Of a stretch of DNA of 64,000 nt, positions 44,056-51,906 are shown in pieces; the first letter of the stretch is position 1, and the number at the start of each line of letters is the position of its first letter. Below the pieces are notes generated by a model. The model was not told where the DNA came from. It was given only the letters and a program-made list of their open reading frames with translations, and made no database searches. Origin of the DNA: Nostoc sp. DedSLP01 (GTDB lineage Bacteria; Cyanobacteriota; Cyanobacteriia; Cyanobacteriales; Nostocaceae); the NCBI GenBank assembly GCA_034530875.2, contig JAVRCJ020000007.1:192001-256000 (forward strand), given 5' to 3'. A program made the position numbers and the translations under genes.

Positions 44056-44253
44056 CCGAATACTGAGTCTATACATAGCTTAGGCTGGTTGGTGATTGTT
44101 CGTTGAATTCCCTTGCCCATAATAAAAGCTGCGATAATCCTCTAGATTAATAAGTTTAGTAAAGTTCGCGTTATCGTTGAACCCAGCCTATTGGCATCAA
44201 GATTTTGTACTGATAGATTAGTAATATATTTTACACAAGTATGTAGAGCCAAC

Positions 44254-44772
44254 GTGAATAAGTCACAGAGTATTAAGCTGCTTGAAAGTGAGGGATGGAC
44301 AAAAGCAGATGCTATGCGTGCATTAGAGGTAATTGACTTTAGTGCCAATCCTGATGAGATTACCATTCGCAGAGGTATTTCGCTTTTTGCTGGTTCTGAG
44401 CTAATTAAGCGTCAACGTCTTCAAGCTGCACAGAAAGGTTTGGTAACAAAGAAAACCAATGAGATTCAGAAAAATAATCAGGAATATGCTGCCAAGATTG
44501 AACAACTGAAGAAATCTCAAAAATATGAAACTGAAATTCAAAATTTATCTGACACCAACAAATTGTTAGAAATGAAACTGAAAACTATAAATACTCAAAA
44601 TAACGAGCTAACGCAAGCAAATGAGCAACTAAAAAAAGATAATAAATTATTAAAAAATTTAATAGATGAAATCAAGTTGAAATTGGCTATGAATACCAAA
44701 AAGCTTCTTCAGTATGAAGATAGCGAAATCCGTCAAGCTTTAATTATGATGTTCAAATCGACACTAGGCTAA
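44254..44772 (+). CDS. Hypothetical coiled-coil protein
   Basis: Probable GTG start (MNKSQSIKLLESEGWTKADAMRAL); long heptad-rich C-terminal half. Confidence 0.8.
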   Translation: MNKSQSIKLLESEGWTKADAMRALEVIDFSANPDEITIRRGISLFAGSELIKRQRLQAAQKGLVTKKTNEIQKNNQEYAAKIEQLKKSQKYETEIQNLSDTNKLLEMKLKTINTQNNELTQANEQLKKDNKLLKNLIDEIKLKLAMNTKKLLQYEDSEIRQALIMMFKSTLG

Positions 44773-44784
44773 TTGAGTGGATTT

Positions 44785-45180
44785 ATGACTAACCAAAAGA
44801 AAGTTTTTCAAAGCATGAGTTACCGCGATCTTCAACGTGCTAACTCCAAGAATAGAATTCAGCTGCGTAAGGAAGACCAAGTTTGGCTAAAAGAAAATTT
44901 TTATAAAAATCTTGGTTGGATTAATGTTATTAATCTTTATGAAAAAATTCAAGACTTTTTCAATAAATATGGTGTTGAAGAATTAACGCTTGAGGAATTG
45001 TTTTTAGAAGCTGACCGTATTGGCAATAAATATCTGACAATCCAAGAGATACAAGACTTTAATCAAAGCTTATCTAGAGAAGTCAACGATATTGCAGAAG
45101 AAATAGATAAGCAGTTTCCAAATACAGAAATAGAATTTATTGATTTCAGTAAAAAAACTAAAAACAGATATTGGAATTAA
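44785..45180 (+). CDS. Hypothetical protein
   Basis: Starts at or within 12 bp of the upstream stop; helical, acidic C-terminus; no recognised family. Confidence 0.78.
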   Translation: MTNQKKVFQSMSYRDLQRANSKNRIQLRKEDQVWLKENFYKNLGWINVINLYEKIQDFFNKYGVEELTLEELFLEADRIGNKYLTIQEIQDFNQSLSREVNDIAEEIDKQFPNTEIEFIDFSKKTKNRYWN

Positions 45181-45210
45181 GTAAATTAAAAACTTTATTT
45201 TTGGATAAAT

Positions 45211-45663
45211 ATGATGAATTTTCCAGATAAAAGCTTAAAAGAATTATTCGATCTGGCAAATAAAATTGGTAATAAGCGATATCACAAACTAACTCCTCAA
45301 GATTTTGAAAATTACAGAAAATTCGATTATTGGCGCTATATTAATGGTGATTATGAATGTGGAACAACGCAAGAAAGTAAAGATTGGGTCAAAGCACATT
45401 CAAGCTGGTACTGTCCGATTTGTGGCGATCGCTACTCTGAGAAAGGTGGTAAGACGGTAGACCACAAACTACCTCGATCGCAATATCCCTGGTTATCAAT
45501 AGAATTTCAGAATTTATGGGTTATTTGCCAGGTTTGCAACCAAGAAAAGAGCGAAATGCATTGGTACGAGTACGAACACTATGTATTTGTTCGCTATCCT
45601 CATCTTTATATTTCTGTAAAAGCTGCACGTCCTAGCTCGTTGCTCCAGTCTTTAAAAGATTAA
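45211..45663 (+). CDS. HNH endonuclease (Zn-finger, McrA-like)
   Basis: YCPICG...TVDHKLPRS...NLWVICQVCNQEKS. Confidence 0.9.
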   Translation: MMNFPDKSLKELFDLANKIGNKRYHKLTPQDFENYRKFDYWRYINGDYECGTTQESKDWVKAHSSWYCPICGDRYSEKGGKTVDHKLPRSQYPWLSIEFQNLWVICQVCNQEKSEMHWYEYEHYVFVRYPHLYISVKAARPSSLLQSLKD

Positions 45664-46974: not shown

Positions 46975-47120
46975 TTTAGATATATAGCGACTTACAACAG
47001 ATTAGTGTCAGGAATGCGATCGCTCGATTTTGTAAACAATGCCAAAAATTGAGCGCAGGTATAATGACAGAGATAGCTAGAAACCAAATTTAGATATGTG
47101 CGATCGCCACATCTCAAGGC

Positions 47121-47149: not shown

Positions 47150-47224
47150 TAAAAGCAGTGTAATTCATTTTGAGACTGATTCGTTATAATATTGACGATA
47201 AACTTTGCTAAAGAGGGCAAATAT

Positions 47225-47434
47225 ATGACTAGCCGCGAGCAGCTTATCCAAGAAATTGCAGAGCTTCCAGATGAGTTAGTCAAAGTAATGTTAGATTTTT
47301 TGCATCGGGTTCAGGCAACGCATAGTCATCATCCTCTAGCAAAATTTGCGGGTATTTTGAGTGATGATGAAGCGGCTGATTTACAGAAAGCAATTCAAAC
47401 TGATTGTCGTCAGGTTGATTTAAATGAGTGGTGA
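47225..47434 (+). CDS. Probable antitoxin of VapC
   Basis: MTSREQLIQEIAELPDELVKVMLDFL...PLAKFAGILSDDEA; overlaps the vapC start. Confidence 0.8.
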   Translation: MTSREQLIQEIAELPDELVKVMLDFLHRVQATHSHHPLAKFAGILSDDEAADLQKAIQTDCRQVDLNEW

Positions 47435-47813
47435 AATTGCGTTAGATACTTCTGTTGCAGTACGTTTTCTAAATGGCGATCCTAATGTTGTTTCAAGGGT
47501 ATTAGCGTTACCAGAAATATTTTTGTCGGTGGTAGTAGTGGGAGAGTTACTATTTGGGGCTGAGAACTCGACTCGACCGTTGAAAAATCTTCCTCGATAT
47601 TTGGAGTTTATAGAAGTTTGTGCGGTTGTGCCTGTGGAAAAGCGAACGGCAGTTATCTATGCTCAGACTCGTTTGGCTTTGAAGCGCAAAGGGCGACCAA
47701 TTCCTATGAATGATGTTTGGATTGCAGCACACTGTCTAGAACATGGTTGGGTGCTTGTTACCAATGATTCAGATTTTGATTATGTGGATGGATTGGTTAT
47801 AGAGCATTGGTAA
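47424..47813 (+). CDS. vapC: VapC/PIN toxin
   Basis: ALDTSV, VVGELLFGA, GRPIPMNDVWIAA, LVTNDSDF. Confidence 0.93.
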   Translation: MSGEIALDTSVAVRFLNGDPNVVSRVLALPEIFLSVVVVGELLFGAENSTRPLKNLPRYLEFIEVCAVVPVEKRTAVIYAQTRLALKRKGRPIPMNDVWIAAHCLEHGWVLVTNDSDFDYVDGLVIEHW

Positions 47814-47974: not shown

Positions 47975-50900
47975 ATGACGCAGGATGAGTTATTGGTACT
48001 GATAGATCGCGCCGTGGCTGAGGGTTGGCGAGAGTTAGACTTGTCGGGACAAGAGTTGACACAGTTACCTGTAGAAATTGGTAAATTGCAGCAGCTTGAG
48101 TCTTTGATTTTGGGAAAGAAGGTTGAAGGTTATGAAGAAGTAGGAAACCGCTATTTCCAGAAGGTTTCAGGCAACAATTTCAAAACGCTTCCACTTGAAC
48201 TATTGAATTTGCCTAATTTGCGGAAGTTGGATATTAGTGGCAATCCTTTAGAGAGCATTCTCGATGTGGTAACGCAAATACTACTATATTTAGAGGAACT
48301 TATCTTAATTCGAGTAGAGCTAACTGAAATACCTGATGCGATCGCGCAATTAACCAATCTGACGCAGCTTCACCTTGATAGCAACCAAATAACCGAGATT
48401 CCAGAGGCGATCGCGAAATTAACCAATCTGACGCAGCTTCACCTCAGTGACAACCAAATAACCGAGATTCCAGAGGCGATCGCTAATTTAACCAATCTGA
48501 CGCAGCTTCACCTCAGTAGCAACCAAATAACCCAAATACCGGAGGGGATCGCTAAATTAACCAATCTGACGCAGCTTGACCTCAGTAGCAACCAAATAAC
48601 CCAAATACCGGAGGCGATCGCTAAATTAACCAATCTGACGCAGCTTGACCTGGATGGCAACCAAATAACCCAGATACCAGAGGCGATCGCGCAATTAACC
48701 AATCTGACGCAGCTTTACCTTAGTTTCAACCAAATAACCCAGATACCAGAGGCGATCGCGCAATTAACCTATCTGACGCAGCTTTTCCTCAGTGACAACC
48801 AAATAACCCAGATACCAGAGACGATCGCGCAATTAACCAATCTGACGCAGCTTTTCCTCAGTGACAACCAAATAACCCAGATACCAGAGACGATTGCGCA
48901 ATTAACCAATCTGACGCAGCTTTTCCTCAGTAACAACCAAATAACCGAGATACCAGAGACGATCGCGCAATTAACCAATCTGACGCAGCTTGTTCTCTAT
49001 AACAACCAAATAACCGAGATACCAGAGACGATCGGTAAATTAACCAATCTGACGCAGCTTGACCTGGATGGCAACCAAATAACCGAGATACCAGAGACGA
49101 TCACGCAATTAACCAATCTGACGCAGCTTGACCTCCGTAACAACCAAATAACCGAGATACCAGAGACGATCGGTAAATTAACCAATCTGACGCAGCTTTT
49201 CCTCAATAACAACCAAATAACCCAGATACCAGAGGCGATCGCGCAATTAACCAATCTGAGGGAGCTTTACCTCAGTAGCAACCAAATAACCCAGATACCA
49301 GAGGCGATCGAAAGTTTGCCGAAATTGGAAAAACTAGATTTACGGGGAAATCCGCTTCCTATTTCACCAGAGATTTTAGGATCTTCTAATGATGTTGGTT
49401 CAGTTGAAGACATTTTCAATTACTTGCGATTACTCCGAAGCGGTGAAGTGCGTCCACTCAACGAAGCCAAACTCTTGCTCATCGGACAAGGTAGCGTCGG
49501 CAAAACATCCCTCATCCAGCGACTAATCCGCGATAAATACGATCAAAATCAACCCCAAACCGACGGACTCAATGTGGAAACTTGGAACGTGCAGGTCAAT
49601 AGCAAAGACATCCGCCTGAATGTTTGGGACTTTGGCGGACAGGAAATTTATCATGCCACCCATCAGTTTTTTCTGACTAAGCGCAGCCTCTATCTCCTCG
49701 TTTGTAATTGTCGCACCAGCGAAGAAGAAAACCGCATCGAATATTGGCTGAAACTAATCGAAAGCTTCGGCGGACAGTCCCCCGTGATTATCGTTGGCAA
49801 CAAAAAAGACGAACAACCCCTCGACATCAACCGCAAAGCATTACGCGAAAAATATCCTAACATCCAAGCGATTATCGAAACCTCCTGCCAAGACAATATC
49901 GGCATTGATGAACTTCGCACCGCAATTTTGCAGCAAATCGCCAAACTCAAAGAAGTCTACGACCTTTTACCCCTCTCATGGTTTGAGGTTAAACAAAAAC
50001 TCGAATCCATGACTGAAGACTTCATCAGCTACAACAGCTACATCGGCATCTGCCACCAAAAAGAGATTCCCGAAGAACAAAACCAAGAGCAACTAATCGA
50101 TTTGCTGCATCGACTCGGCTTAGTTCTCAACTTCCGCGATCATCCCATCCTCAAAGATACCAACGTCCTCAAACCCAACTGGGTGACAGAAGGCATTTAC
50201 ACGCTCCTGAGCGATGAAAACCTCAAAACTAAAACCAAAGGCATTTTCACCCCCGCCGATCTCACCCGCATCCTCAATCCAGAGCGATACCCCACTAAGC
50301 GTCACGACTATCTGATCGGGCTGATGAAAGAATTTGAGCTTTGCTTTGCACTAGAATGTTACCCACCACAATTTCTGATTGCGGGACTTCTGCCTAAAGA
50401 CGAACCAGACGAAACAGAACTCGACGGCGAAACCCTGGAATTTCAATACCATTACAAAGTTCTCCCCGAAAGCATCATCTCCCGCTTCATCGTCATTACC
50501 CACGAAAAAATTCATAACCAAATCTATTGGCGCAGTGGCGTAATGCTGCAATATCAAGAAAACAACGAAATCTACAATATTGCTCGCATCAAAGCGGATC
50601 CCGAAGACAAAAAAATCTTCATCACCATTAGCGAACGTAAAGAAACCCGCCGCTTATTTCTCGGTATTCTCCGCGATGTCTTCCAAAAAATCCACAAAAG
50701 TCTTCCCAATCTCGAAATCACCGAATGGGTTCCTGTCCCCAACTATCCCAAACATCCGCCCCTCGACTACCAAGAACTACTTGGACTCGAATCAATGGGT
50801 GAAAGCACAATCACCATCGGCAAACTAAAATTAAAACTCGATTTGCGTCAACTACTTGATGGGTATGAAGATATAAGAACTCGACAAAGACAACAAATAG

Positions 50901-51394
50901 ACAAAGGAATTATTGAACCAGCCCCGATTAAGGAACCAATTATGTCAGAAAGCATCAGAAACCAAATATTTGTTAGCTACAGTCATCAAGATGCAGAATG
51001 GTTAACAGAACTACAAATACAACTAAAACCCTATATTCGTGCAGAAAATTTTATCGTTTGGGATGACACCAAAATCAAACCTGGCGCAAAATGGAAAGCC
51101 GAGATTGAAAAAGCATTAGCCACAGCTAAGGTTGCTATCCTGCTAGTCAGCCCTAACTTTATAGGCTCTGATTTCATCGACAGACATGAGCTACCCCCCT
51201 TACTCAACGCAGCCGAACAAGAGGGATTAACCATTATCTGGATTCCAATTAGTGCAAGCTCATACAGAAAAACCGACATCCAAGAATACCAAGCTGCTCA
51301 CCCTCCAGATAAACCCCTCGACAGTCTAAATAAGGCAGAACGTAACCAAGCTTGGGTAAAAATTTGCGAAGAAGTCGAAAAGGCAATGAAATAG
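47975..51394 (+). CDS. Roco-type protein: LRR array - Roc GTPase - COR - TIR
   Basis: LRRs; P-loop [11 protein letters not shown]2 QTDG, G3 WDFGGQ, G4 GNKKD; COR ([22 protein letters not shown]); TIR ([37 protein letters not shown]). Confidence 0.95.
48326..49291 (+). repeat. 14 tandem 69-bp (23-aa) LRR units of very high nucleotide identity
   Basis: Consensus (E/Q)IPE(A/T)IA(Q/K)LTNLTQLxLxxNQIT; exact 69-bp period. Confidence 0.97.
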
Positions 51395-51596: not shown

Positions 51597-51601
51597 GAGT
51601 T

Positions 51602-51906
51602 CGCCAAAATAACAAATGCGCTGCCAAAATTATAAATGCGCTCGCCAAAATCATAAATGCGCTCGCCAAAATCATAAATGCGCTCGCCAAAATCATAAAT
51701 GCGCTCACAAAATTATAAATACGCTCACAAAAATCATAAATGCGTCGCCAAAATTATAAATGCGCTCACAAAATTATAAATGCGCTCACAAAATTATAAA
51801 TGCGCTCGCCAAAATTATAAATGCGCTCACAAAATTATAAATGCGCTCGCCAAAATCATAAATGTGTCACCAAAATCATAAATGCGTCGTCAAAATCATA
51901 AATGCT
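51602..51906. repeat. About 15 tandem 20/21-bp units C(G)CCAAAAT(C/T)ATAAATGCGCT
   Basis: Read directly; mixed 20- and 21-bp units break any reading frame. Confidence 0.95.

Follow-up and report, generated by a model that had tools for sequence, protein, structure and literature searches.

A leucine-rich repeat (LRR) array of Nostoc sp. DedSLP01 raises the question of how nearly identical repeat units come to differ at three codons per unit while the third bases of those codons stay fixed. The array lies in the window analysed here, that is, the whole stretch of 64,000 nucleotides (positions 192,001 to 256,000 of contig JAVRCJ020000007.1). An earlier note, made from the sequence alone, proposed concerted evolution with module shuffling and diversifying selection, with DGR-like adenine-directed mutagenesis as a variant.

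The array and its gene

The array consists of 14 in-frame units of 69 nt each (Table 1). TRF applied to the window delimited it as 48329-49310, with a period of 69, 14.2 copies and 90% matches, values which place it among repeats of high internal conservation according to the threshold taken from part of PMC4986451 (>85% identity over ≥100 aa between repeats). The three variable positions (sites 1, 2 and 3) are codons 8, 10 and 11 of the unit, located on the beta-strand and just after it. Their triplets in the 14 units (HDS, HSD, HSS, DSS, DDG, YSF, FSD, FSD, FSN, VYN, DDG, DRN, FNN and YSS) were found as the earlier note gave them, and so were the third bases (site 1, C in 13/14 units, the exception being GTT; site 2, T in 14/14; site 3, C in 14/14). 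Amino acid entropy at sites 1, 2 and 3 of the window array was 2.18, 1.75 and 2.18 bits. Variation extends to codons 16, 20, 22 and 23 (entropy 1.0-1.6). In relatives, codon 6 is hypervariable as well, with 14 residues, which makes four such sites. A single-sequence fold predicted one strand per repeat (aa 131-135, 154-158 and onward), with codons 8 and 10 in each repeat's beta-strand and codon 11 after it in the structure model. The x positions of LRR beta-strands face the concave surface of the solenoid, and the orientation of codons 8, 10 and 11 was taken from there.

The common core of units 5 and 11, pointed out in the earlier note, was confirmed to lie inside an identical 49-nt tract. 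Of the 14 units, only these two carry a silent CTG within the tract, which indicates that their shared core is a copy and not the result of convergence. The order of the units recurs in a second protein record that differs by one residue, and the last six units are also present in a third record. This speaks against a pure assembly artefact, though the records may come from one clone.

Table 1. Features of the array gene and its upstream stretch; positions are those of the window.
Feature	Position	Strand	Basis and remarks
Non-coding stretch upstream, ends in HIP1	47031..47107	+	Found with the gene at several loci; two deletion scars have it as left junction
LRR-Roc-COR-TIR (Roco / AP-GTPase) gene	47975..51394	+	ORF of 1139 aa, frame intact; Pfam; PDB matches
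Single-copy N-cap, helix and first irregular LRRs	47975..48349	+	Conserved; dN/dS without the hairpin, 0.28
Predicted beta-hairpin, aa 43-65, extending the LRR2 strand	48101..48169	+	Model pLDDT 93.9; strands 43-56 and 59-65
Seven HIP1 octamers (GCGATCGC) in Ala-Ile-Ala codons of units	48338..49242	.	Starts 48338, 48407, 48476, 48614, 48683, 48752, 49235
LRR array, 14 near-identical 23-aa units	48350..49315	+	Repeat finder, unit alignment, genus units
49-nt tract	48622..48670	+	Identical to 49036-49084; units 5 and 11, patch copied six units away
Roc GTPase domain	49469..49810	+	PF08477, aa 499-612; P-loop motif in translation
COR-A and COR-B dimerisation domains	49970..50863	+	PF16095, aa 666-806; PF25497, aa 819-963
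TIR effector domain	50966..51391	+	PF13676, aa 998-1092; ThsB-like PADLOC profile, E 1e-13

The earlier note had recognised the array but not that the gene around it is a Roc-COR-TIR gene, from a family already described. PF08477, PF16095 and PF25497 scored above cut-off, with Roc followed directly by COR; the nucleotide-binding motifs of Roc were read from the translation alone. Glu1072 is situated at what we take to be the place of the catalytic glutamate of TIR NADases. The best PDB sequence matches were structures of the Chlorobium tepidum Roco protein (8R4B/6HLU, E 1e-126). A STAND (NACHT or NB-ARC) ATPase core was absent by Pfam, the core being Roc-COR, so the protein is not an NLR proper. 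No signal peptide or membrane segment was evident in the 1139-aa translation, and a promoter/terminator scan upstream of the gene returned nothing over chance. The PADLOC match was confined to the TIR domain, and the gene stands alone. Three further Roc-COR genes are present in the genome, none of them with an array unit at the DNA level. In a Roco paralogue at G000 C12:28615-32466, the Roc-COR module occurs twice in tandem, LRRs are few and the C-terminus is hydrophobic.

Several other elements were observed around the gene. From the upstream HIP1 stretch the Roco gene is separated by an insert (47192-47813, + strand) with an antitoxin-like small ORF and a PIN toxin similar to VapC. This insert is missing at the same locus in G031 and precedes the orthologue at another locus in G006. 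Between recA and xseA (44191-45663, + strand) lies a three-gene cassette encoding proteins of 193 aa, 135 aa and 150 aa, the last of which is HNH-like and matches PtuB/PDC profiles; the cassette is kept at this locus in G031 and G008. A tandem array of 20-21 nt repeats occupies 51601-51905, 3' of the Roco gene, and related arrays are found near many orthologues, on either side.

Selection, third bases and adenine-directed mutagenesis

A DNA search of 61 genomes recovered orthologues at 84-95% DNA identity, and the named orthologues are mostly from Nostoc; one is on record for PCC 7120. In total, 259 units were collected from 23 of the 24 loci examined (L016 has no unit), and 190 further units came from 20 loci retrieved with a search pattern that itself demanded NNC/NNT/NNC in one unit. 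The unit pattern was found in 71 of 127 genus genomes. Across the genus, 14, 14 and 15 different residues were seen at sites 1, 2 and 3, and 14 at codon 6. The same sites are variable in 22 homogenised arrays from other cyanobacterial lineages, a set from which L055, L058 and L061 had been excluded because of their closeness. L057 and L062 were dropped as duplicates. At L075 and L078, 22-aa LRR arrays with high internal identity and three or four of the same variable codons were seen, with no Roc motif in the locus.

The location of the gene varies: it stands beside xseA, as in the window, at 3 of 16 fetched loci, and its neighbours (labelled by comparison with the window proteins and by eye) differ from locus to locus. 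Three copies among these 16 loci are split or truncated. In orthologues ~90% identical in DNA, COR is followed by a TIR domain, by a helical module without a name or by a short tail; a Pfam scan of four orthologues' C-terminal modules gave COR-B as the sole family above the cut-off. Patchy presence, many locations, swapped C-termini and broken copies fit an immune gene. About one third of the orthologues have the alternative C-terminus seen at L042:10587-11183 and L041:7630-8229, in which a helical module without a Pfam match comes after a low-complexity linker rich in N/Q; the two may, we presume, resemble an amyloid-type signalling motif with a death-like bundle. At L046 and L009, short tails rich in G, D and N repeats replace TIR and possibly contain a short adaptor motif.

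The diversifying selection on LRR beta-strand positions proposed in the earlier note was borne out by pN/pS and by codon models (IQ-TREE, fitted per partition), with sites chosen post hoc. Per-codon dN/dS, which the earlier note had suggested computing, gave omega 8.8 at the variable codons of the window vs 0.51 elsewhere (2dlnL 6.8 against omega 1), and the genus units gave 5.6 vs 0.45 (2dlnL 26; 90 of 218 distinct units), values inflated by the picking of sites after inspection and by one tree being forced on recombining units. In the window, pN at the three codons was 0.46 vs a scaffold pS of 0.14, and pN at these codons exceeded scaffold pS in 20/20 arrays with ≥5 full units, smaller arrays being left out of this comparison.

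The cap, which was unresolved by the single-sequence fold, was resolved by an alignment-based fold. Residues 55, 58, 60 and 62 of its predicted hairpin are hypervariable among orthologues, with entropies of 2.58, 2.27, 2.29 and 1.47 vs a mean of 0.24 (19 sequences; L033 and L039, where the motif was not found, were omitted from the alignment). In a codon model, dN/dS was 1.95 for aa 49-65 and 0.28 for the remaining cap (2dlnL 4.2). The changes are biased to codon bases 1 and 2, as in the array (mismatch 0.25, 0.16, 0.11). The single-copy cap with this hairpin serves as an independent control for selection, and the bias is present here without repeats. The window cap also carries three private changes at 48179-48295 (L to F, P to L and a one-codon insertion) that are absent from 18 orthologues; the cap being otherwise conserved, the window allele may be decaying.

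The fixation of third bases described in the earlier note is real at the three codons but not peculiar to them, much of the scaffold being equally frozen. In the window, the third base is invariant in 13 of 20 scaffold codons; in the genus, one third base is retained by ≥250 of 259 units in each of eight scaffold columns, and by 250, 250 and 246 units at sites 1, 2 and 3. Among the 190 further units, NNC, NNT and NNC are kept in 181, 189 and 175. In the 22 other arrays the prevailing third base depends on the lineage (site 2, T in 16, C in 5 and A in 1; site 3, C in 12, T in 6 and A in 4). Residues E, K, Q, M and W are rare in divergent LRRs at site 1 (2/73) and site 2 (4/73); at site 3 their frequency is 2/250 vs 12/73 in divergent arrays. 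Given the frozen scaffold, the lineage-specific third bases and the rarity of E/K/Q/M/W, the wobble freeze is largely background. Third bases are nevertheless kept in 95-96.5% of units vs 65-92% in point-mutation simulations, and 7 non-synonymous third-base steps were observed where ~33 were expected. The simplest reading of this excess is a family-specific residue preference.

The nearly pure codon sets and a freeze exceeding simulation are also what DGR-type adenine-directed mutagenesis, with an AAC/AAT/AAC template acting in trans on the units, would have in its favour. No second DNA copy of the unit was found among the 113 contigs assembled for the own genome, an assembly that may lack a copy. 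The template search proposed in the earlier note returned the all-adenine pattern in 0/127 genus genomes at ≤1 mismatch, the generic unit pattern with its 71/127 serving as control. No Avd was found in the own genome. One of its two reverse transcriptases is the maturase of a group II intron and the other is of the UG34 type, both lying on other contigs and neither being a DGR reverse transcriptase. Silent third-position adenines of CAA, CCA and TTA, 6-21 nt from the sites, were changed in only 3, 8 and 1 of 259 and 0, 0 and 3 of 190 units. At the variable sites, by contrast, bases 1-2 were non-A in 917/1554 cases (59%). The third base does vary in two Ile codons of the unit. Steps involving A occurred at baseline (65% vs 63%; 12/28 in near-identical units), the third base in other lineages is the lineage's own, A included, and clonal strains have nearly all triplets in common (see below). 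We regard adenine-directed mutagenesis of this array as scarcely credible.

Two candidate signals were discarded in this connection. An adenine-centred spectrum proved to be an artefact, as the count of 169 out of 209 steps with A arose from alphabetical tie-breaking in the spanning tree and random ties gave the baseline; a lone unit in G314, considered as a template, turned out to be a deletion scar. The UG34-type reverse transcriptase (L002:994-2793, G000 contig C5; PADLOC E 3e-204) converges on a nuclease-helicase-like gene and is a candidate defence system.

Exchange between units and loss of the gene

The module shuffling and concerted evolution put forward in the earlier note were supported, with exchange running also below the scale of whole modules. 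The nearest scaffold neighbour of a unit lay within its own array for 177 of 250 units (ties allowed). Four gametes were found in 46/105 site pairs of the window, to which recurrent mutation can contribute. Linkage was 0.21 at ≤6 nt and 0.13 at 7-15 nt, and approached the shuffled value of 0.08 past 30 nt. Since linkage is lost beyond about 15-30 nt, units exchange patches besides whole copies. Free reassortment of bases 1 and 2 inside a codon was rejected, their mutual information being ~2x the shuffled value.

In the comparison of array order, which the earlier note had suggested, almost no order was shared between species. The 31 arrays compared, of 8-18 units each, contain 163 distinct triplets in 407 units (arrays of <8-9 units were left out of the order and linkage tests). 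A shared run of ≥2 triplets was found in 17 of 465 array pairs, the remaining 448 having none longer than one. Among 43 protein pairs with identical Roc-COR, 98% of triplets are shared and the unit number differs; the hairpin is identical in 26/26 cases. Triplet sharing drops to 6-10% under 98% core identity.

Unit number ranges from 7 to 15 among full-length members with an identical core. Since conflicting numbers are also found between assemblies bearing one strain name, assembly error probably accounts for some of this variation. A clean gap of five units separates two records that lie on chromosome-size contigs. In public sequencing data, three runs from one study match both flanks exactly, none of their contigs reaching across the array; variant pieces seen at low depth in run X1 are indistinguishable from errors or another strain. 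A five-unit block duplication in L083 was dropped as proof of shuffling, a record of apparently the same strain having another order.

The octamer HIP1 (GCGATCGC) occurs at 0.89 per kb in the genome, and within the Ala-Ile-Ala codons of 206 out of 401 units. Only one unit of the gene is left in G314, and comparison with the intact G029 locus places the two junctions at HIP1 or HIP1-like sites; in G005, HIP1 marks the left junction but not the right one. The left junctions of G314 and G005 may have a common origin. Some link of HIP1 to site-specific recombination is described in part of PMC4390886. As a required shuffling hotspot HIP1 was rejected: r2 across the site was not lower than at equal distances off it (0.140 vs 0.141; 0.117 vs 0.109), and HIP1 is missing from many homogenised arrays of other lineages. 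HIP1 therefore bears on gene loss, not on shuffling.

Explanations and comparison with known systems

Bacterial Roco proteins serve as structural models for LRRK2, and their own role is a prediction. The LRR-Roc-COR-TIR architecture, the homogenised units with exchange below unit scale and the excess of amino acid change at codons 8, 10 and 11 (and 6) are, in our judgement, quite probably explained by the array being the ligand-sensing solenoid of a cytoplasmic receptor, in which recombination homogenises the units and a changing ligand favours change of the contact residues. Units are kept alike by mutual recombination, with whole units gained or lost and patches of ~15-60 nt copied. Ordinary point mutations at the variable codons would be favoured repeatedly as the ligand changes, and then spread and recombined over the array. 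Third bases would stay as they are since homogenisation removes silent changes and since the favoured strand residues (D, H, Y, N, S, G, I, V and F) can be reached via bases 1-2. The ligand may be an invader protein, most likely of a phage or another parasite. By analogy with Roco and TIR biochemistry, its binding would shift the Roc-COR monomer/dimer cycle and cluster the TIR domains, which could then act on NAD+ or recruit a partner, so that the infected filament cell is stopped or killed. A Roc-COR-CHAT protease found with a bacterial gasdermin, as described in part of bioRxiv 2021.06.07.447441, ties the Roco family to cell death.

Other accounts of the variability were weighed against this receptor. 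Under relaxed constraint, exposed positions would drift while folding holds the scaffold, and the protein need not be an immune receptor. The post hoc choice of sites, the recombination-inflated omega and the occurrence of broken and deleted copies accord with this, but drift expects pN = pS, while pN at the sites is 3x scaffold pS and 5x the pS of those same codons; convex-side codons, equally exposed, vary far less than the three sites, and the hairpin has omega >1 without any repeat effects. We hold drift to be very unlikely. A targeted or repair-linked mutator at bases 1-2, such as error-prone repair of misaligned-unit heteroduplexes, acting on top of selection, would explain the third-base conservation that simulations leave over, and arrays are indeed entirely reworked between 100% and 98% core identity. 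Yet the hairpin, which has no repeats, is biased to bases 1-2 as well, bases 1 and 2 stay linked within codons, almost no new triplets appear among clones, and a family-specific dislike of E/K/Q/M/W would cover the remainder; such a mutator therefore appears decidedly improbable.

It is also conceivable, at long odds, that the ligand is a self or partner determinant, serving kin discrimination between filaments or recognition of a host or fungal partner molecule, as in fungal allorecognition. The nearest evolutionary parallel, the Podospora HNWD family (in the relevant part of PMC1805685), and the best-matching sequencing runs, which are root metagenomes, point in this direction. Against it stand the translation, with neither signal peptide nor membrane segment evident, the lack of a linked partner gene among neighbours that change by locus, and the presence of orthologues in free-living laboratory strains. 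Unlikely as well is an anticipatory receptor of the VLR type, in which new array variants would arise continually in a polyploid filament through slippage of units and conversion of patches, perhaps biased by repair towards bases 1-2; the hairpin would act as a CDR3-like loop, HIP1 sites as a built-in gene deletion, and allele-specific binding of phage proteins would fire TIR.

Returning to the ligand-sensing receptor, diversifying selection at codon level, on the LRR face and also on the cap hairpin, speaks for a ligand that changes; the gene was found in more than half of the genus genomes covered. The orthologues offer a natural allele series for finding it, including genetically tractable strains (PCC 7120). 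The NNC/NNT codon pattern alone is no sign of a DGR. According to parts of PMC7517822 and bioRxiv 2023.09.22.558884, DGRs need a reverse transcriptase, Avd and a template, all template adenines mutate, and the targets are C-terminal CLec folds. DGRs and the Roco array have in common that codon bases 1-2 vary in a putative sensor of multicellular bacteria; none of the other DGR traits named above was found for the array.

The LRR-Roc-COR-effector (AP-GTPase) conflict system, with a predicted counter-invader function, was described by Kaur et al. 2021 (PMC8195603), whose source data include at least one Nostoc LRR+AP-GTPase+COR+TIR protein among the matches listed. The window gene has the traits given there: Roc-COR, fast-evolving N-terminal LRRs and a variable C-terminal effector. 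Compared with the section concerned in that paper, the present analysis adds the codon-level treatment, the concerted evolution of units, the hairpin and the HIP1 scars. In the full-text literature, subscription journals and preprint supplements aside, we found no codon-level study of bacterial Roco LRR arrays and none of the cap hairpin or the HIP1 scars. The architecture and the evolutionary pattern are thus already published, and the new details are few: the cap hairpin, the swapped C-terminal effectors and the HIP1 gene-loss scars. Across Roc-COR, the best solved relative is the Roco protein of C. tepidum (PDB 6HLU, 8R4B, 5IL7), for which a nucleotide-dependent monomer/dimer cycle is described in part of PMC6337361.

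Concerted repeat evolution with selection was suggested earlier for bacterial WD and TPR repeats. The hypervariable LRR loci of Flavobacterium psychrophilum have one variable face and recombine heavily (Altae-Tran 2020, PMC10392669); unlike the Nostoc gene, they encode secreted, BspA-like surface proteins in tandem gene arrays, with no GTPase or effector, and a search of that paper gave no match to Roc or cyanobacteria.

The fungal and algal strategy of repeat shuffling is now seen in a bacterial LRR. Fungal NLR repeats (HNWD), in the relevant parts of Paoletti 2007 (PMC1805685), Dyrka 2014 (PMC4986451) and Ament-Velasquez 2026 (PMC13449251), are near-identical and evolve in concert, with 3-5 selected binding-face codons per unit, length polymorphism and a death-type effector. 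The Nostoc array is like them in its near-identical units, concerted evolution and few selected binding-face codons. The fungal proteins, however, have a STAND ATPase, WD40, TPR or ANK repeats, an N-terminal effector and RIP as a mutation source, whereas the Nostoc protein has a Roc GTPase, LRRs and a C-terminal effector (same sources). In brown algal ROCO LRRs, four positively selected concave sites are reported in parts of Zambounis 2012 (PMC3341825) and Teng 2024 (PMC11378527), at positions 15, 17, 19 and 20 or 14, 16, 18 and 19. This spacing equals that of Nostoc codons 6, 8, 10 and 11, and LRR-Roc-COR, repeat shuffling and a proposed role as immune receptors are common to both. Each algal LRR is an exon that is shuffled or spliced, whereas the Nostoc repeats form an intron-free tandem array that recombines both at and below the scale of the unit, with a TIR domain behind it (PMC3341825; PMC11378527).
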